From contig CAJUJY010000004.1 in NCBI GenBank assembly GCA_910586555.1, positions 12,112-76,111 on the forward strand: 64,000 nt of DNA, read 5' to 3'. This DNA comes from an uncultured Lachnospiraceae bacterium. GTDB taxonomy: Bacteria; Bacillota; Clostridia; Lachnospirales; Lachnospiraceae. Both the position numbers and the translations under genes were made by a program. Under the pieces are notes generated by a model, which was not told where the DNA came from, searched no databases, and worked only from the letters and a program-made list of their open reading frames with translations. Position 1 is the first letter of the stretch. The number at the start of each line of letters is the position of its first letter. This document shows, one piece after another, positions 5,091-64,000 of this stretch.

Positions 5091-5285
5091 TCAATCTATT
5101 GCACTTTTCCCGCTTTTAACCCATGCATCCAATTCTGATTTTTTAAACTTCCACAGCTTTCCTATTTTATGAGCAGGAATTCCATTATCTTTACGAATCC
5201 AGTTTCTGATAGTATCTTTATTTACACTCAAGTAATCTGCTGCTTCTTCAAGATTAATCCATTTATCATTATTCTCAATACTCAT
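5091..5285 (-). CDS. Excisionase-family / MerR-like helix-turn-helix DNA-binding protein
   Basis: 64 aa. WINLEEAADYLSVNKDTIRNWIRK...IGKLWKFKKSELDAWV matches the HTH_17/Xis pattern. It has a GGAG RBS and is the first gene of the HTH-ASCH-MTase string. Confidence 0.8.
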   Translation of the reverse strand: MSIENNDKWINLEEAADYLSVNKDTIRNWIRKDNGIPAHKIGKLWKFKKSELDAWVKSGKSAID

Positions 5286-5326
5286 ATCAAATCTCCTCTA
5301 TATACTCAGGGGTTGCATTCCATAAA

Positions 5327-5355
5327 ATTATACCATATCTTTATGTCTTTTTCAA
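5327..5355 (-). promoter_or_regulatory. Sigma-A type promoter for the HTH-ASCH-MTase operon
   Basis: On the minus strand: TTGAAA (5350-5355), a 17-nt spacer, then TATAAT (5327-5332), about 40 nt upstream of the HTH start codon. Confidence 0.6.
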
Positions 5356-5360
5356 GGCGT

Positions 5361-5400
5361 TAATATGAATTGATATGAATTGATATGAATTGATATGAAT
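5361..5400. repeat. Four tandem 10-bp direct repeats (TGATATGAAT; the first copy is TAATATGAAT)
   Basis: Read directly: taatatgaat tgatatgaat tgatatgaat tgatatgaat. Exact 10-bp periodicity, ending 5 nt from the -35 box of the promoter above. Confidence 0.95.
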
Positions 5401-7268: not shown

Positions 7269-7402
7269 AAACTTTACCAGGCACAAAACCCCGTTTCCTT
7301 TATATAGCAGTTTAAGGGTAAAAAGTGCCATATTCCTTTCCTAATTAACAAACTTTATACCATGGTTTAAATTGTCAAATATATATCCACAGTCCACAAA
7401 AC

Positions 7403-7432
7403 AACCCCACCGCTTTTAAAGGCTTAAGAAGC
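7403..7432 (-). repeat. Deleted fragment (copy F) of the multi-hairpin intergenic repeat family
   Basis: The reverse complement GCTTCTTAAGC..GCGGTGGGGTTGTTTTGTGG matches modules CGCTTCTTAAGCGGTGGG and GGTTGTTTTG of copies A-D. Confidence 0.6.
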
Positions 7433-7448
7433 ATATATTTAAGTATCT

Positions 7449-7540
7449 GGTTTAATTAATTGTTACAACATTACCAAGTACTTTAAATTTGTAAGCAAGT
7501 TTAGTATATGGCCAATTAATTATTACAACATTTCAAATTT
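7449..7540. repeat. Two degenerate duplicates of the last ~50 nt of pheA, lying downstream of the gene
   Basis: 7449-7500 (ggtttaattaattgttacaacattaccaagtactttaaatttgtaagcaagt) is ~88% identical to 7548-7599, which is the genuine pheA 3' end plus stop. 7510-7540 is a shorter third copy. Confidence 0.85.
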
Positions 7541-7550
7541 AATATTTGGT

Positions 7551-8696
7551 TTAATTAATTGTTACAATATTGCCAAGTACTTTAAATTTGCTTGCAAACT
7601 CATTTATGCATGCCAGTGCATTTCCCACTTCTGGCTGGTTTAAGTTACCTTCTATATCCACAAAAAACCTGTATTCCCAATTTCTGTTTTCTATTGGCCT
7701 TGATTCAATTTTAGTCAGGTTTAAACCATTGTAATAAAAATTGGAAAGCATGTTGTAAAGTGAGCCTGCCTGGTGTTTTATTTCAAATGAAAGGCTTATT
7801 TTATTGGCATCTGGCAAAAATATTTTCTGGTTGGAGATTATTATAAAACGTGTATAATTCATGCTTTCATGGTTTATCTGTTCTTTTATTATATCCAGCC
7901 CGAAAATGCCTGCTGCACGTGTGCTTGCTATTGCTGCCTGTGAGGGATCTGCATCTTCGGAAACTTTTTTAGCTGCGGCTGATGTGCTGGTATATGTTTT
8001 TGTTAAAATTCCAGGATAGTTCTCAAAAAACTTTGAACACTGCATAATCCCCTGCTGGTGGGAATATACTGTTTTAATATCTTCAAGTTTTGCACCTTTA
8101 AGTCCCATAAGTGCCTGTTCAACCTTTACAACATGTTCTGCAACTATTGTTATATCATAATTAAGAAGCAGGTCATAAATATCTGTAATTCCCCCTGTTG
8201 ATGTATTTTCAATCGGAAGGACACCAAACTTTGCTTCACCATTAGCAACGGTTTCCATTACTTCTTTAAATGTATTTTTATTTATTGCTGTTATGTTTTT
8301 GCCAAATACTTCTTCCATTGCCTGCTCTGTGTATGCGCCATGTTCCCCAAAACACACAACCCTTGTGTCAGCATCCACATCAAATGATTCTGCCTGTTTA
8401 AAAACCTGCCTGAAACTGTCACTCGTCCCAAGTACCTGGTACTGGTATTTGCGGCTTATTGACATAATCTGCCTGAAAAGGTCTTCTATGCCTGTTTTAT
8501 TAAATTCACTGTCTGCAAGTTCCCTTAGCACTTTTAACTTTTCTTCTTCGCGTACAGGATCAAATACTTTTTTACCTGTGCTTCTTTTATATGCTGCAAC
8601 ATCTGTTGAAACTTTCATCCTCTCCTCAAATAGTTCTGCAATTTTTTTGTCTATTTTATCAATTTTTTCTCTGCTTTCTTTTAAATCAATAACCAT
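7551..8696 (-). CDS. pheA: Bifunctional chorismate mutase / prephenate dehydratase
   Basis: It has a chorismate mutase N-terminus (MVIDLKESREKIDKIDKKIAELFEERM), a prephenate dehydratase core and an ACT domain with TKIESRPI. The start was moved to M36 of the track ORF, which removes the overlap with the upstream gene. Confidence 0.9.
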   Translation of the reverse strand: MVIDLKESREKIDKIDKKIAELFEERMKVSTDVAAYKRSTGKKVFDPVREEEKLKVLRELADSEFNKTGIEDLFRQIMSISRKYQYQVLGTSDSFRQVFKQAESFDVDADTRVVCFGEHGAYTEQAMEEVFGKNITAINKNTFKEVMETVANGEAKFGVLPIENTSTGGITDIYDLLLNYDITIVAEHVVKVEQALMGLKGAKLEDIKTVYSHQQGIMQCSKFFENYPGILTKTYTSTSAAAKKVSEDADPSQAAIASTRAAGIFGLDIIKEQINHESMNYTRFIIISNQKIFLPDANKISLSFEIKHQAGSLYNMLSNFYYNGLNLTKIESRPIENRNWEYRFFVDIEGNLNQPEVGNALACINEFASKFKVLGNIVTIN

Positions 8697-20417: not shown

Positions 20418-21100
20418 GGTTCATAAATTATAATGTAAATAAAAGATAATTTATAGTTATCTGTGGTTTGTTTTAAAGGAGGTATATAGAAATTTTTATG
20501 CCCTGGCAGTTCCAAAGTGTCCCATGTACAGCCCGCTTGCGCTTGGACTTACACGCAGCGGTGCATAAAGCCCTTATGCTTCAAAGAAAAAACTTCTTTG
20601 AAGCATTTAAGACAGGGCTTAAACACCGGCGGCTGCGTACATCTGTCCATTGGGAGCACATTTGGAACTTGCCAGGTAATATACGTTTTGGCAGTTTATA
20701 AAAATATTTTTTGTACATCTCCTTAACTTATGGGAATTAAAAGTTTTCTTGCTTGTATTTTAATTTCTTGGTAAAATTTTATATTTCTCTTAAAGATGGA
20801 AAACCAGAGTATACAACATTCTCTGGTTATTACCTGTAACTTGTATTTTTCCATAGTGTTTAAACCATGTGGAAAATTTTTATGTCCTGTGTAAAAGGCA
20901 TTTTTGCACCGTCAGTGCTTAAACCTGGTATTTTCAGGTTTTATGCACTGTTACGTGTGCAATCATAGCGGAAGCGGGCCTTTTACCGGGACATAAAAAT
21001 TTCCACATGTACAACCTCCTTAAAACAAACCACAGATAACTATAAATTATCTCCTGTTTATATATAATTAAAAATTTATGAAATGGACTTGGGATTTTTA
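20418..21100 (+). repeat. Composite ~0.68-kb repeat element E1, with long terminal inverted repeats and no credible ORF
   Basis: TIR core AGATAATTTATAGTTATCTGTGGTTTGTTTTAA(A)GGAGGT at 20444-20483 recurs inverted at 21012-51. Homology to E2 extends ~25-50 bp beyond both cores. Contents: a covarying hairpin (20501-20676), a 60-bp module S (20731-20790) and a second long hairpin (20871-21004). Boundaries are approximate. Confidence 0.8.
20501..20676 (+). ncRNA. Candidate structured RNA (or ssDNA hairpin), ~175 nt, unassigned family
   Basis: A long imperfect hairpin closed by CCTGGCA.GTTCCAAA / TTTGGAACTTGCCAGG, with a 13-bp apical stem ATGCTTCAAAGAA / TTCTTTGAAGCAT. Two helices differ from the E2 copy by paired, compensatory changes. 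No transcript evidence is available. Confidence 0.45.
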
Positions 21101-23599: not shown

Positions 23600-23795
23600 T
23601 TTAACCTCATTAAGTAAGCCCTTTAAAATACACGCTTCTTAAGCGGTGGGTTTGGTTTACCAGGGCTTACTTAGTCTGGCAGGGGTTCAAGCTCCTGACA
23701 GACTGCCACAAAGCGGCAATGAGGTTGTTTTGCAAGTGGGCAAGTAGCCAATGCCTGCTTTGCAGGCGAAGCGGATTGCGAATATCCGCTTGAAT
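23600..23795 (+). repeat. Multi-hairpin intergenic repeat, copy A (full length)
   Basis: AACCTCAT-TAAGTAAGCCC...GGGCTTACTTA-GTCTGGCAGGGG..CTCCTGACAGAC-TGCCACAAAGCGGCA-ATGAGGTT, followed by hairpins GCCTGCTTTGCAGGC and AAGCGGATTGCGAATATCCGCTT. It lies between the convergent blaR1 and trxB. Confidence 0.85.
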
Positions 23796-40344: not shown

Positions 40345-41010
40345 TCTGTTCCAGAAATTTATAATATAAATAATAGATAATTTATAGTTATCCAAGGTTT
40401 GTTGTATATATTGTAGTCTGTGTACATGCAGCAGTTTTATATATTTTCTGTAGCAGGCACGTTCCCACTACGATAGTGCCTTTTACAGAAAATATATAAA
40501 ACTGCTTGCATGTTACTATGTTTCATTGGGAATTAAAAGTTTTCCTGTTTGTATTTTAACTTTTTGACAAAATTTTATATTTGTCTGGAAGACTTTTATG
40601 TCCCATGTAAAAAGTACTTTTCACCGTTATTAAACACTATCACATGTGCAAGTGCAGTACAATGCCATTGAACCAGGGAAATCCACAGGAAATATTTTTA
40701 TAAACTGCCAAAACGTATATTACCTGGCAAAGGCCAGATGTAATCCTAAAAGGCAACTGTACGGGGCCGCCGGCGTTTAAACCTGGTTTTAAATGCTTCA
40801 AAGAAATTTTTTCTTTGAAGCATACAGGTTTTACGCGCCGTTGCGTGAACCCGTCCAAGCGGAAGCGGGTTGCCTGTAGGATTACTTTGGACTTGCCAGG
40901 GTATAACATTCTGGTCTATTATTTAAAATAAACCGTGGATAACTATAAATTATCTTTTGTTTGCGAACAATTAAAAATTTATGCAACAGACATGGATTCT
41001 ATTATTTTTT
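40345..41010 (-). repeat. Composite ~0.67-kb repeat element E2, same family as E1 with the hairpin on the opposite strand
   Basis: TIR cores AGATAATTTATAGTTATCCAAGGTTTGTT (40375-40403) and its inverted partner at 40927-40955. Contents: a 95-nt near-perfect palindrome (40425-40519), module S (40527-40586) and the covarying hairpin (40723-40901). Boundaries are approximate. Confidence 0.8.
40723..40901 (-). ncRNA. Second copy of the candidate ~175-nt structured RNA/hairpin
   Basis: It has the same architecture as 20501-20676. The apical 13-bp stem is identical (40793-40805 / 40811-40823). Helix GTAATCCTA/TAGGATTAC replaces E1's GTGTCCCA/TGGGAGCAC, and ACCTG/CAGGT replaces GCCC/GGGC. Confidence 0.45.
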
Positions 41011-41085: not shown

Positions 41086-41625
41086 ATGCCAGGTAGTCCG
41101 GAATTTCCTAATATAGATATGGAATTTTATGAAACAGATACAGATATACTGCAAAACTTTATTACCACTGTAAAGACAGATGGACAGTTTACAGAAGAGT
41201 ATTTAATTTTATATGATTTTGCAACAGACTTAAAATACCAGGTATATATAAATCCTGGTTTAATTAAATACCTGTTGCCATTTTATTTAAAAACTATGGA
41301 AGAAGCAGTTGTTTTGAACAATAAAACTGCAATGGATATTTATTGTGCATTTAATGAAGCGTTGTTTTTTAACAGGCAGAATTTTATTTCTGCCATGGGA
41401 AATGAACCTTTTAATTATATAATAAATGAAAAGTACATTAAAAGCTTATTTAAAGAAACAAAAAACCTGGTATATAAGTACATTGGAAAAGAAATTGCCA
41501 GCCTTTTTTGTGAGGAAATAGATAGAAGTTTTAACACAGGTATTTTTTACAGCAGAAAAAAGGAGTTCCTGGAAAAAATAAGCAGTGCACAAAAAAAAGA
41601 GTTTTACTGGGATAATACTTTTTGA
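41086..41625 (+). CDS. Hypothetical protein (179 aa)
   Basis: An ORF with an AGGAG RBS and no recognisable motif. It is bracketed by repeat E2 on the left and multi-hairpin repeat copy B on the right. Confidence 0.6.
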   Translation: MPGSPEFPNIDMEFYETDTDILQNFITTVKTDGQFTEEYLILYDFATDLKYQVYINPGLIKYLLPFYLKTMEEAVVLNNKTAMDIYCAFNEALFFNRQNFISAMGNEPFNYIINEKYIKSLFKETKNLVYKYIGKEIASLFCEEIDRSFNTGIFYSRKKEFLEKISSAQKKEFYWDNTF

Positions 41626-41658
41626 TGTGCCCTGCTGCTTAAAAAGTCCAGGCTGTTT

Positions 41659-41841
41659 GTCAAACGGATATTCGCGATCCGCTTCGCCTGCAAGCAGGCA
41701 TTGGCTACTTGCCCACTTGCAAATCAACCTCATTGCCGCTTTGCGGCAGTCTGGCAGGAGCTTGAACTCCTGCCAGACTAAGTAAGCCCTGGTAAATCAA
41801 ACCCACCGCTTAAGAAGCGGGGACTTACTTAATGAGGTTAA
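41659..41841 (-). repeat. Multi-hairpin intergenic repeat, copy B (full length, inverted)
   Basis: Its reverse complement aligns module-for-module with copy A. It lies between the convergent 41086-41625 ORF and argG. Confidence 0.85.
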
Positions 41842-41860
41842 ACAGTTTTCCTGTAAAAAT

Positions 41861-43281: not shown

Positions 43282-43312
43282 AGAATATTTATTCAAAATT
43301 ATGTATATTTAT
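43282..43312. promoter_or_regulatory. Tandem ARG-box-like operator (ArgR/AhrC site)
   Basis: AGAATATTTATTCA (reverse complement TGAATAAATATTCT) at 43282-43295 and TTATGTATATTTAT at 43299-43312 are separated by 3 bp. This matches the TGAAT-N4-ATTCA ARG-box pattern. Confidence 0.5.
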
Positions 43313-43424
43313 TAATTTATCCCGTCAAACCGGTCCATAAAGCTCTTTAAAAGCAGCAGCAGCTTAAATGTGGATTGCGGATATCTATTTGACAACCAGT
43401 ACATATTGTAATTTTACAGGATTC

Positions 43425-43453
43425 TTGACACTTTCCACATGCCATGTTAAAAT
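43425..43453 (+). promoter_or_regulatory. Putative glmS promoter
   Basis: TTGACA (43425-43430), 17 nt, then TAAAAT (43448-43453), about 60 nt upstream of the ribozyme. Confidence 0.6.
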
Positions 43454-43516
43454 CTTTCAAGGAAATAAAAGACCAGGCTTTTTGTTAATTTCCTGGCAGA
43501 AATGCCATAAAACATT

Positions 43517-43715
43517 AGCGCCAGACCCTTAACATGCATTTTTAGATATTACCTGGAAGCATTGTGATACAGCCCTGCCCTTTAAACCAGTGCAGGCAGT
43601 AAGGGTGACGAGGTAAAAGGTTATCGGAATTCCGGCGGATGCCTTTTTGTATTCTTTGCATGCAGAGGTATGGGCAGACACCTGGGTAACCAGGGAACAA
43701 ATCCTGTACCAGCAA
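43517..43715 (+). ncRNA. glmS ribozyme: glmS glucosamine-6-phosphate-activated ribozyme
   Basis: It has the cleavage-site/core sequence AGCGCCAGA (43517-), then GACGAGG and GGTTATCGGAATTCCGGCGGATGCC. These match the conserved glmS ribozyme core, and it sits directly upstream of glmS. The 3' boundary is approximate. Confidence 0.85.
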
Positions 43716-43782
43716 AGGGATATTTTAATATAATATACCATATTGTAAATAACAGGCAGAAAGTGCAGAAAAGAGGTAAATT

Positions 43783-45603
43783 ATGTGCGGAATTATTGGA
43801 TTTACAGGTAATATCAATGCAAAAGAGGTATTACTACAAGGACTTAAAGCCCTTGAATACCGTGGTTATGACAGTGCCGGCATTTCTTATTTTACAGAAA
43901 GCGGCATTAAAACAATTAAAGCAGTTGGCAAGGTTTCAGGCCTTGCAGAAAAAGTTGCACTATCAGATGGTGACATACCAAAGTGCGGAATAGGCCATAC
44001 ACGGTGGGCAACACATGGCGGTGTTTCTGAAATTAACTGCCACCCTCACCATTTTGGCAAGGTAACACTTATCCATAATGGCATTATTGAAAATTACAAA
44101 GAATTACAAGAAGAACTTGCCCTTGATGGTAAAGAACCTGTTTCACAGACAGATTCAGAGATTGCTGCTATGGTGATTGATTCATGTTATAAATCAAATC
44201 CCGTAAGGGCTATTAAAAAAGCTGTTAAAAAACTACACGGTGCATATGCATTCTGTATAATGTTTGAAGACCACCCTGGAAGCATATATGCAATAAGGAA
44301 TGGCAGCCCGCTTGTTGCCACTGCTACTAAAGAAGGGGCTGTTATTGCATCAGACATGGTTGCACTTATAAAATATTCTAAAGATTATTTTGTACTGCCT
44401 GAACACCATATAGCCCACCTTACAGCAGGAAGCATTAATATTACAGACCTTGACCAGAATGAAATTGAACCGGATATGCTCCATGTAAACTGGGATATGG
44501 CAGCAGCAAGAAAAGGCGGTTATGAGTATTTTATGCTCAAAGAAATACATGAACAGCCAGAAGCACTCCATAATACAATATCACCAAGAATAAAAGACGG
44601 GCTTCCTGACTTTTCGGCAGATAATATACCTGACAGCCTGTTTGAAAATACAGACAGGATAATAATAACAGCCTGTGGTACTGCAATGCATGCAGGGCTT
44701 ATTGGCAAAAACATGATTGAAAAACTTTCAAGGGTTCCTGTTACTGTGGATATTGCTTCGGAGTTCCGTTACCAGAACCCTGTAATTGATAGCAATACAC
44801 TTGTTATAACTATATCCCAGTCAGGCGAAACCGCAGACACGCTTGCTGCATTAAGGCTTGCCAAAGAATGTGGTGCTAAAACATTGTCAATAGTTAATGT
44901 TAAGGGTTCTTCCATTGCACGTGAAAGTGATTATGTGCTTTATACACATGCAGGCCCTGAAATAGCTGTTGCAAGCACTAAAGCTTATACTGTACAGCTT
45001 GCCACAATCTATCTTTTTGCATTCAGGTTTGCACTTTTAAAAGACATTGTACCAGAAGCAGAAATAAGAAATTTAACAAGCATACTTCTGAAGATGCCTG
45101 GCTTTGTGGAAAATATGCTTTCATGTGACAAGGCTATAGAAAAAATAAGCAATAAACTTAAAAAGACTAAAAACCTTTTCTTTATCGGGCGCGGGCTTGA
45201 TTATGCACTTTCATGTGAAGGTTCAATTAAATTAAAAGAAGTAAGTTATATACATTCAGAGGCATATGCAGCAGGTGAACTTAAACATGGCACTATATCA
45301 CTTATTACAGATAATGTGCCAGTAATTGCACTTGCTACCCAGGACAATGTTTTTACTAAAATGATTTCCAATATACGGGAGGTACGTTCCCGTGGTGCAA
45401 AGGTTATAATGATTACAGGCGCTGATACAGGGGTTGATGCATCACTTTGTGACCACCTTATCACACTCCCGCCAGTAAATGATTTATTTGCGCCATTCGG
45501 GGCAGCAATAGTATTACAGTATATTGCATACTATACAGCTGTTGCAAAGGGGCTTAATGTAGACCAGCCAAGAAACCTTGCTAAATCAGTAACTGTAGAG
45601 TAA
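43783..45603 (+). CDS. glmS: Glutamine--fructose-6-phosphate aminotransferase
   Basis: MCGIIGF N-terminal nucleophile, two SIS domains and a C-terminal ...KSVTVE. Confidence 0.97.
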   Translation: MCGIIGFTGNINAKEVLLQGLKALEYRGYDSAGISYFTESGIKTIKAVGKVSGLAEKVALSDGDIPKCGIGHTRWATHGGVSEINCHPHHFGKVTLIHNGIIENYKELQEELALDGKEPVSQTDSEIAAMVIDSCYKSNPVRAIKKAVKKLHGAYAFCIMFEDHPGSIYAIRNGSPLVATATKEGAVIASDMVALIKYSKDYFVLPEHHIAHLTAGSINITDLDQNEIEPDMLHVNWDMAAARKGGYEYFMLKEIHEQPEALHNTISPRIKDGLPDFSADNIPDSLFENTDRIIITACGTAMHAGLIGKNMIEKLSRVPVTVDIASEFRYQNPVIDSNTLVITISQSGETADTLAALRLAKECGAKTLSIVNVKGSSIARESDYVLYTHAGPEIAVASTKAYTVQLATIYLFAFRFALLKDIVPEAEIRNLTSILLKMPGFVENMLSCDKAIEKISNKLKKTKNLFFIGRGLDYALSCEGSIKLKEVSYIHSEAYAAGELKHGTISLITDNVPVIALATQDNVFTKMISNIREVRSRGAKVIMITGADTGVDASLCDHLITLPPVNDLFAPFGAAIVLQYIAYYTAVAKGLNVDQPRNLAKSVTVE

Positions 45604-45619
45604 CAACAGAATAAACTGG

Positions 45620-45671
45620 CGGCTTGCCCCCCACAAAACAACCTTATTGCCACTTTGTGGCAATCTGGCAG
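45620..45671 (-). repeat. Multi-hairpin intergenic repeat, fragment E
   Basis: AACCTTATTGCCACTTTGTGGCAATCTGGCAG corresponds to AACCTCATTGCCGCTTTGCGGCAGTCTGGCAG of copy B. The small stem has changed GCCGC/GCGGC to GCCAC/GTGGC on both sides. Confidence 0.7.
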
Positions 45672-45715
45672 AATAATAAAACCCCCGCTTTTAAACGGGG
45701 GTCTTCTGGATTTTT
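45671..45715. terminator. Bidirectional terminator shared by the convergent glmS and spoIVA
   Basis: Stem ACCCCCG (45681-45687) / CGGGGGT (45696-45702). On the minus strand it is followed by TTTTATTATT; on the plus strand a T-run begins 8 nt after the stem. Confidence 0.65.
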
Positions 45716-45845
45716 AACAGAAGTCCGGCGTCCCTGCAAAATAAAATGGCGTCATTCCTTTACTTTGCCAGGATTACGCCATTTTTAAAGTATATATAAA
45801 TTTTATTTTAAAGCTGTGTTTTTGTAAAATTATACCAGTATTGTT

Positions 45846-47400: not shown

Positions 47401-47463
47401 CCTTTATCCGGTTTATCTATTTATATGAAATGCAGGATAATATTAGAACATATAAAAAAGCGT

Positions 47464-47597
47464 TTAACCTCATTAAGTAAGTCCCCCGCTTCTTAAGCGG
47501 TGGGTTTAGGACTTACTTAATGAGGTTGTTTTGCAGGTGGGCAAGTAGCAAATGCCTGCTTTGCAGGCAATGCAGATTGCGAATATCCGCTTGACTA
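47464..47597 (+). repeat. Multi-hairpin intergenic repeat, copy C (short form)
   Basis: AACCTCATTAAGTAAGTCC ... GGACTTACTTAATGAGGTT forms a perfect 19-bp stem enclosing CCGCTTCTTAAGCGG. It lacks the 45-nt two-hairpin insert of copies A, B and D, and the same 3' hairpin modules follow. Confidence 0.85.
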
Positions 47598-57840: not shown

Positions 57841-57895
57841 AAGAATCCCCCATTCTAAAACCTGCTTATAGAAACATGCTGTTAAAGGCCGCCTT

Positions 57896-58052
57896 TTAAC
57901 CTCATTAAGTAAGTCCCACGCTTCTTAAGCGGTGGGTTTAGGACTTACTTAGTCTGGCAGGAGTTTAAGCTCCTGCCAGACTGCCGCAAAGCGGCAATGA
58001 GGTTATGAGCAAGTAGCGAAGCGGATTGCGAATATCAGTTTGACTACTTGCT
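57896..58052 (+). repeat. Multi-hairpin intergenic repeat, copy D
   Basis: AACCTCAT / TAAGTAAGTCC..GGACTTACTTA / GTCTGGCAGGAG..CTCCTGCCAGAC / TGCCGCAAAGCGGCA / ATGAGGTT, then GCAAGTAG...CTACTTGC. Confidence 0.85.
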
Positions 58053-63439: not shown

Positions 63440-63940
63440 ATGTTTTATGAAATGAGAAGAAAACGCCAGTTATTAACATTAGATGAATGTAATAATATTT
63501 TAAAAAATGGCACTTCTGGTGTACTTGCCTTGTCTGGCGGTGACAGCTTTCCATATGCTGTACCATTAAGTTATGTATACAGTGGCAGTTCTATTTACTT
63601 CCACAGCGCATTAACAGGACATAAAACCAGCTTAATACAGAAATTTCCTAAAGCTTCTTTTTGTGTTATAGGAAGTGATAATGTAATGCCTCTGGAATAT
63701 ACTACATATTTTAGCAGTGTAATTGTATTTGGGGAAATACATATAGTAGAAGATAAAGATAAAAAAATGGCAGCAATAAAAGAACTTGCTGTTAAATATG
63801 CACCTTTAGAAGAAGAAAATAAAATGCAGTCTGTTATTAATAATGAATGGGAACGCTTTTGTATAATTGAGCTTGCAATAAAGCATATAAGCGGTAAAAA
63901 AGCAAAAGAACTTATTAACCCTGGCAACATAAAAAAATAA
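63440..63940 (+). CDS. Pyridoxamine 5'-phosphate oxidase-family (FMN-binding split-barrel) protein
   Basis: 166 aa. MRRKRQLLTLDECNNILKNGTSGVLAL...YAVPLSYVY...IYFHSA is typical of NimA/PNPOx-like proteins. AAGGAG RBS. Confidence 0.75.
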   Translation: MFYEMRRKRQLLTLDECNNILKNGTSGVLALSGGDSFPYAVPLSYVYSGSSIYFHSALTGHKTSLIQKFPKASFCVIGSDNVMPLEYTTYFSSVIVFGEIHIVEDKDKKMAAIKELAVKYAPLEEENKMQSVINNEWERFCIIELAIKHISGKKAKELINPGNIKK

Positions 63941-64000
63941 GCACGAGACGGGATTCGAACCCGCGGCCCCCGCCTTGGCAAGGCGGTACTCCACCACTGA
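63940..64000 (-). tRNA. tRNA-Gly (anticodon GCC), 3' two-thirds; the 5' end lies beyond the window
   Basis: The reverse complement is TCAGTGGTGGAGTACCGCCTTGCCAAGGCGGGGGCCGCGGGTTCGAATCCCGTCTCGTGC-T. It shows a D-loop, anticodon stem-loop CCGCC-UUGCCAA-GGCGG, a T-arm with GGTTCGAATCC, and an acceptor 3' strand. No CCA is encoded. Confidence 0.9.

Follow-up and report, generated by a model that had tools for sequence, protein, structure and literature searches.

What kind of element is the multi-hairpin sequence that lies around position 57900 of the window, and does its fold belong to an RNA or to DNA? The window, the whole 64,000-nucleotide stretch analysed, is ordinary chromosome of a spore-forming Lachnospiraceae with 36.8% G+C, encoding SpoIVA, GlmS with its ribozyme, ArgG, S21 and RF1. 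The first-pass annotation had listed six copies or fragments of a dispersed, modular, multi-hairpin intergenic repeat and compared it to REP/BIME or MITE elements. Every one of the six is confirmed in the sequence, far above chance, and the repeat is mobile and MITE- or REP-like in the broad sense. It is not a classical REP/BIME or a MITE with terminal inverted repeats (TIRs), as inverted pairs, TIRs and target duplications are all missing. Our reading is that it is probably a small, non-autonomous, gene-less element of 130-190 bases from the IS200/IS605 family that targets TTTAA, similar to the palindrome-associated transposable elements (PATEs).

The window contains four full copies and three decayed fragments, a density of one copy per 9 kb, where about 0 would be expected by chance. 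Copy D, which raised the question, occupies 57900-58044 on the plus strand, directly 3' of its TTTAA target motif (TAM, 57895-57899), and is flanked on each side by minus-strand genes. It is made up of the stems P1, P2, P3, P4 and P5 and a short 3' tail, and scores 156 bits against a covariance model (CM) derived from 21 copies. Copy A (23605-23794, plus strand, TTTAA at 23600-23604, 223 bits) is the longest form, with every optional module, and is found 12 nt past the stop codon of a BlaR1-like gene with convergent genes either side. Copy B (41659-41837, minus strand, 212 bits), with its TTTAA at 41838-41842 on the minus strand, also sits between convergent genes, 19 nt past the argG stop, in an intergenic region of identical length in other strains. 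Copy C (47468-47595, plus strand, TTTAA at 47463-47467, 125 bits) is a short form without P4 and P5. It lies antisense in the rpsU / spoIVA intergenic region and is found in all strains sampled. GCA_949113145.1, GCA_964018445.1 and GCA_965646015.1 are among the assemblies that contain these loci.

The fragments are at various stages of decay. Fragment E (45615-45671, minus strand), just past the spoIVA terminator, spans the 3' arm of P4 through the beginning of the tail, is truncated at both ends, and is covered by a CM match at 45589-45727 with an E value of 7.5e-5. Fragment F (about 7374-7443, minus strand) has heavy internal deletions and retains pieces of the P3 region, of the linker and of the right-end hairpin, with the terminus TTTGAC; it is assigned by visible alignment only, since the CM misses it at E<=1. 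Beside it, downstream of a pheA-like gene, there is a 60-nt direct repeat (7439-7498 and 7538-7597, 87% identity, 99 nt apart). Fragment G (43370-43393, plus strand) is a remnant of the right-end hairpin, GTGGATTGCGGATATCTATTTGAC, with a weak CM match at 43306-43393 (E 0.22), 110 nt upstream of the glmS ribozyme. That ribozyme (RF00234, 66 bits) is at 43506-43720 on the plus strand, upstream of glmS (43783-45603), and is preceded by a good sigma-70-like promoter at about 43425-43455.

The family stands well clear of background. In the window, the 5'-end 18-mer TTAACCTCATTAAGTAAG is present 5 times where 0.17 would be expected, and the inner-hairpin 21-mer CGCTTCTTAAGCGGTGGGTTT 4 times where 0.00 would be, while the CM recovers copies A, B, C and D there with E values of 1e-36 to 1e-66. 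All the hairpins described at first pass were found, and the folds are far more stable than those of shuffled sequences (z -6 to -11). The units, 45-190 nt long, have no coding capacity: no ORF of 80 aa or more lies inside a copy, and one 95-aa ORF (41446-41733, minus strand) overlaps part of copy B.

The window also has a second repeat family, with two members of ~650 bp each at about 20425-21092 and 40356-40995. They have blocks 79-86% identical, long palindromes around GCTTCAAAGAA..TTCTTTGAAGC and 32-bp inverted repeats (AGATAATTTATAGTTATCTGTGGTTTGTTTTA and its complement). Contigs L022 and L026 give weaker matches to the family, and one copy has an 89-aa ORF that has no Pfam match. The 3' part of a tRNA gene (63940-64000, minus strand, RF00005, 43 bits) is cut by the window end.

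The repeat is mobile: it is present or absent between strains and between species, with exact boundaries. Copy D is precisely missing from strain contig L037 and carried by L038, L039 and L040. The filled site reads TTTTAA-element-TACTTGC and the empty one TTTTAA-GACTTGC, differing by one SNP; L037 has a single TTTAA with the right flank directly after it. The other two pairs come from two species represented by metagenome-assembled genomes (MAGs), L003 and L009, whose flanks are about 96% identical and each of which is filled where the other is empty. L003 has AAAGTATTTAA-element-TAAATTTTAACC where L009 has AAAGTATTTAA joined to TAAATTTTAACC, and L009 has CGCTTTTTAA-element-CTTAATAGG where L003 has CGCTTTTTAA joined to CTTAATAGG. 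From the junctions of these three orthologous filled/empty sites, the unit is 5'-CCTCATT...CTTGAC-3'. In 3/3 pairs the insertion is exactly 3' of TTTAA, the empty site retains TTTAA once, and it equals left flank plus right flank with no target-site duplication. In principle, precise excision, and not an ancestral lack of the element, could account for the empty sites; mobility is indicated either way.

The ends are asymmetric, with no terminal inverted repeats in the alignments: the 5' end starts CCTCATTAAG..., the 3' end finishes ...ATCCGCTTGAC, and the right end of the element reads GAAGCGGATTGCGAATATCCGCTTGAC. The loci listed at first pass stand, with their ends corrected from the empty sites. 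The outer stem AACCTCAT had been started two bases too early, as its 'AA' is part of the TTTAA target and outside the element, and the end of copy D had been set at 58052, eight bases too late, 58045-58052 being flank. TTTAA precedes 24/24 copies found via an internal anchor. Position -5 is T in 54/57 distinct sites chosen by a left-end pattern that fixed positions -4 to -1 and left -5 free; variant motifs such as TTTGA, GATAA and AATGA precede a minority of human-gut copies, which this pattern did not capture. Some copies form head-to-tail tandems, ...CTTGAC followed by CCAAATCAAG..., as expected for insertion beside a right end. At L090 (about 5222-5400), L155 and L158, the new left end begins directly after the TTGAC of the preceding copy. 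These tandems suggest that the right-end motif is usable as a substitute target. We also considered the terminal TTGAC as a mobile -35 box and rejected this, as the spacing to a downstream -10 is inconsistent and many copies face no gene.

Further copies, which the first-pass annotation had named as a check, are abundant beyond the window. The 21-mer of the inner hairpin has 24 copies in four mouse-gut Lachnospiraceae genomes (MAGs), plus two more matches, in Betaproteobacteria, that are put down to chance. The last 22 bases of the element match 5 viral contigs and at least 120 metagenome contigs, mostly from human gut among the matches listed. Those matches belong to a diverged subfamily built on the same plan: TTTAA, then CCGAATCAAGTAAGTCCCC...GGGGACTTGCTTG-TATCAGGAGGAG...CTCCTTCTGATA-AACTGC...GCAGTT-ATTCGG-TTATGAGCAAGTAGCGAAGCGGATTGCGAATATCCGCTTGAC to the right end. 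The repeat is abundant and previously uncatalogued. Copy B gave no BLAST match to plasmid and phage records, and the left-end pattern gave none to viral contigs. When neighbouring ORFs were clustered, the neighbours of the copies were housekeeping genes. A look-up by S21 was uninformative because the protein is too conserved, and one by ArgG led to one contig, which breaks inside the repeat. Many short-read contigs of this species (L044-L050, L054 and L055) likewise stop inside copies A and B. In L057 (about 2180-2260), the spoIVA side of copy C is kept, the other side has unrelated genes, and the repeat is D-type; the switch of synteny inside copy C could reflect recombination between copies or a chimeric assembly. 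In L144 (632-2873), two direct copies bracket a gene for a 464-aa AAA-type ATPase and a 174-aa gene, which together resemble an anti-phage gene pair.

The fold is a conserved property of the family. The four-way junction described at first pass is real and perfect, with a branch point that has no unpaired bases: P1 closes P2 (with P3 at its tip), P4 and P5. After the junction comes a near-invariant tail of 40 nt with an 8-bp hairpin 5 nt from the terminus; since the tail is almost invariant, that hairpin is beyond covariation testing. In copy C, which has lost arms P4 and P5, P1 and P2 stack into a 19-bp stem. The double changes cited at first pass as preserving pairing come to a single covarying pair among the 21 close copies, with a score within shuffles, but the support becomes overwhelming once the diverged subfamily is added. 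Over 42 copies of both subfamilies, the paired fraction of cells is 97.7%, compared with 88.4% in shuffles, and double changes are seen in 23/55 pairs (229 cells), a level reached by 0/500 shuffles and approached by no slid register. Covariation is therefore far above background. Much of it is one split between the two subfamilies; independent changes within the human-gut set include CCGAAT/ATTCGG, CCAAAT/ATTTGG and CCTCAT/ATGAGG in P1 and several more in P4. G-T pairs outnumber A-C mismatches 90 to 30, which points to one strand as the folded, functional one. A G-T (G-U) pair had been taken as acceptable only in RNA, but hairpins of single-stranded DNA tolerate wobble equally, and the copies occur in both gene orientations (30 co-oriented, 19 opposed); the excess fits single-stranded DNA as well as RNA.

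Five optional segments separate the copies from one another. The 45-nt double hairpin of P4 and P5 had been proposed as a nested insertion. Both arms are kept and covary in every subfamily, which makes them ancestral and the short form a deletion. In other strains of the same species, copy A has internal deletions of 41 nt and 39 nt, and at one site two metagenomes have different deletion derivatives (L075 and L091). The minimal forms of 45-50 nt have at least 3 different junctions within an internal direct repeat, CAAGTAAGT / GCAAGTAGC. From the strain deletions and the presence of P4 and P5 in all subfamilies, we regard the modular variants as losses in place rather than nested insertions. 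Copies would decay where they sit, by deletion of hairpins or by deletion between the direct repeats CAAGTAAGT / GCAAGTAGC, and such deletions would yield both the 'modular' variants and the 45-nt minimal forms.

We then asked what enzyme might move the repeat. No transposase was found in the window (Pfam on 20 of ~55 proteins, and a motif scan in all six frames), none was found adjacent to the roughly 170 copies examined, and these copies with their 1.4 Mb of flanks yielded no autonomous copy. The search for an autonomous copy covered left ends without a near right end, clusters of neighbouring ORFs, genes between paired copies and a TnpB motif scan, and turned up only decayed copies plus housekeeping or defence genes. 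In one context (L066, L079 and L080), a gene for a Y1 transposase (Pfam Y1_Tnp, 1.6e-45) starts 143 nt downstream of a copy and has a disrupted tnpB behind it; in L066, this gene and the tnpB remnant share an intergenic region with the repeat. The tnpB of L066 (1159-3294) is interrupted about 150 codons in, by a segment that looks like an inserted prophage or integrative element and encodes a large serine recombinase of 539 aa. Relatives of the L066 TnpA, with 68-81% identity, sit in intact tnpA+tnpB IS605 elements, insertion sequences (ISs) of related bacteria.

The IS left ends read TTTAA, then CC(T/A)AATCAGCGACAGAAGTCG, a hairpin TCCACTTCTATAAGTGGGTGA and TGAAT, in outline TTTAA, then CC..AAGTC and a hairpin CCNCNCTTCT..AAGNGGNGG. 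The left end of the repeat aligns with them. Common to both are the TTTAA target, the CC start, AAGTC and the hairpin CCCGCTTCTTAAGCGGTGGG, and one IS right-end hairpin, CCATCCGCTTCTATAAGCGGTGG, is nearly identical in sequence to that shared hairpin. The IS right ends read ...GAAGCC, a hairpin and GTAGTTCAC at the terminus. Compared as GAAGC-hairpin-..TTCAC for the IS and GAAGC-hairpin-GCTTGAC for the repeat (7 nt ending TTGAC), the right ends have in common just GAAGC, a hairpin and TTNAC. Studied IS200/IS605 elements have similar hairpins at the two ends. The repeat has hairpins near both ends, with the sense strand favoured by the G-T excess, and its right-end hairpin, AAGCGGAT-TGCGAAT-ATCCGCTT, is unlike its left-end hairpin and unlike those of the IS clade; it is the same 6-bp duplex as the left one with the loop on the opposite side. 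None of the tnpA- or tnpB-bearing loci searched has the 40-nt tail, and a parent IS sharing the right end was not found either. We know of no role for P4 and P5 in transposition, or of any TnpA that needs the tail or the arms. The pairing of a TTTAA target with a TTCAC end is documented for IS605/TnpB elements (PMC11043419), and gene-less PATEs mobilised in trans are documented in Geobacillus (PMC10055086). A tyrosine HUH transposase, as suggested at first pass, is judged the likely partner, and we infer the enzyme and a single-strand mechanism from the left-end homology and the family signature.

In the movement that we propose, a Y1 (HUH) TnpA encoded elsewhere in the genome would bind the subterminal hairpins on the single-stranded top strand, cut 3' of the TTTAA on the left and 3' of the terminal TTGAC, and free a single-stranded circle. 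The circle would then be pasted 3' of another TTTAA that is single-stranded at a replication fork ('peel and paste'). Since TTTAA often contains a TAA stop codon, copies would pile up just past genes. The upstream gene is co-oriented with the copy at 30 sites and opposed at 19, and for eleven copies a co-oriented gene has its stop codon no more than 12 nt away; in the window, copies C and D are antisense to both neighbours. The top strand is the G-rich strand at 34/49 sites (p 0.009), a bias confounded with gene orientation and TAA stops. Insertion into the lagging-strand template would be expected to give a bias in this direction. The bias is not seen in the window itself, where 3/4 full copies are on the C-rich strand.

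A different reading is that the repeat is primarily a structured RNA (an sRNA gene, 3'-UTR stabiliser or terminator), copied because it is useful and with its fold selected as RNA. The covariation is strong, G-U-compatible pairs are in excess on the sense strand, the sense fold is more stable than the antisense fold, and the eleven copies close behind co-oriented stop codons also speak for it. A helix / tandem G-A / helix motif (AUGAGCA...UGCGAAUAU) is moreover common to the tail and an Rfam candidate sRNA, Clostridiales-1. However, G-T pairs suit single-stranded DNA equally, the repeat is found in both orientations to flanking genes (30 vs 19 upstream, with C and D antisense), and the unit travels without promoter or terminator. 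Its exact ends are tied to a DNA target motif and to presence/absence polymorphism, truncated and internally deleted copies are common, and the left end shows homology to the end of a transposon. We consider a primarily RNA role improbable.

The likeness to Clostridiales-1 (RF01699) was followed further. Its authors describe a large structure of four stems, of unknown function and very common among Clostridiales of the human gut (Weinberg 2010, PMC2864571), and it is also multi-copy in genomes (PMC2864571). With gathering and with permissive thresholds, the repeat matches no Rfam family, giving only sub-threshold hits to RF01699: 21.0 bits for copy D and 22-29 bits for the human-gut subfamily, against a gathering score of 48, and no match for copies A, B and C. 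The Rfam check called for at first pass thus reached no catalogued family (21-29 bits against 48). The two are alike in a local motif, AUGAGCA-(hairpin)-CGGAnUGCGAAUAU, that forms helix / tandem G-A / helix, and unlike in overall sequence, stem order and termini. TTTAA is at the 5' edge of 0/4 RF01699 members read with flanks, whereas the repeat has it. We rejected membership in RF01699 on the different termini, the lack of a TTTAA flank in the members read and the score below threshold. The tail of all copies (e.g., window 58004-58036) has an alternative fold, UUAU-GA-GCAA...UUGC-GA-AUAU, again helix / tandem G-A / helix, which competes with P1 and the 8-bp end hairpin and is lost in the GUAGAGCYRCGUAGC tail variant.

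About equally improbable, in our view, is that the repeat is of the REP/BIME type and kept by a domesticated RAYT instead of an IS-borne TnpA. RAYTs are themselves Y1 HUH enzymes, the 45-nt minimal forms are REP-sized, and no IS with a matching right end was found. REPs follow a rule of GTAG plus a palindrome, and the tail resembles this in having GTAG a few bases 5' of a hairpin (CAAGTAGCGAAGCGGAT...). Yet there are no inverted REP pairs: copies are solitary or head-to-tail, and copies at the same locus are all direct. A motif scan of 1.4 Mb of flanks found no RAYT-like gene flanked by copies, and Y1 genes only in the one IS605 context, and REPs have not been described with an IS605-type left end and a fixed TTTAA target. 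With their three or more junctions and the L075 and L091 derivatives at one site, the minimal forms look like decay products. Hardly credible at all is a conventional MITE moved by a DDE transposase, with the 19-bp P1+P2 stem of the short form serving as its TIRs. In copy C, AACCTCATTAAGTAAGTCC / GGACTTACTTAATGAGGTT is indeed a perfect inverted repeat, but it is internal, with a conserved 45-75 nt tail behind it in every copy. Target-site duplication is absent at 3/3 empty sites, and these sites refute a DDE-transposase MITE.

The TTTAA-targeting, IS605-related element that we favour is most readily compared with the PATEs of haloarchaea and Geobacillus stearothermophilus (PMC10055086). Like them, it has no genes, has asymmetric ends with subterminal hairpins, inserts 3' of a fixed pentanucleotide without duplication, has many copies per genome and is presumed to be mobilised in trans by a Y1 TnpA. 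It differs from the PATEs in its body, which folds as a perfect four-way junction and has P4 and P5 as additional covarying arms, in a right-end hairpin unlike the left-end one with no parent IS found that has the same right end, in a 40-nt right end that is almost invariant across otherwise diverged subfamilies, and in its hosts, gut Lachnospiraceae. With the IS605 group (loci L187-L201, and IS605/TnpB7 of Sulfolobus islandicus, PMC11043419), it shares the TTTAA target, a homologous left end (CC start, AAGTC, hairpin CCNCNCTTCT-loop-AAGNGGNGG) and a right-end layout of GAAGC, hairpin and 7-8 nt ending TT(C/G)AC. IS605 elements carry tnpA and tnpB, and their right end doubles as the TnpB guide-RNA scaffold, whereas the repeat is gene-less, ends in TTGAC rather than TTCAC and has no scaffold upstream of the right-end hairpin. 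REP/BIME elements with their RAYTs and the BOX elements of Streptococcus pneumoniae are also comparable, as short, intergenic, modular hairpin repeats. REPs depend on a Y1 HUH enzyme, and BOX elements have optional modules. The repeat differs from both in lacking inverted doublets and in having exact ends with a TTTAA target and a left end homologous to IS605.

We think it doubtful that the element is more than a passive hitch-hiker, with an RNA role or a protein partner for its tail and arms. Were it so, the 40-nt tail with P4 and P5 could, by analogy, encode an RNA that reads into the right flank and acts in trans, guide-like, with a TnpB-family or other protein. This reading is modelled on PATEs that reportedly carry omega-RNAs. 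Alternatively, the tandem G-A hairpin could mark a protein partner common to the repeat and to the orphan Clostridiales-1. If true, a shared partner would unite two abundant gut 'RNA motifs' as one class of mobile element.

For the gut Lachnospiraceae, the analysis provides exact boundaries and a probable mechanism for an abundant, unannotated repeat with at least 120 metagenome matches. It explains the placement of copies just past stop codons and the assembly breaks at copies, several contigs ending inside the repeat. Presence/absence, together with the variants deleted in place, is a possible strain marker. There is also a warning here, that strong covariation in a multi-copy intergenic motif can mean a single-stranded DNA transposition substrate and not an RNA. 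For the IS605 family, the TTTAA/TTNAC subgroup would be extended to a gene-less form with an unusual four-way-junction body.
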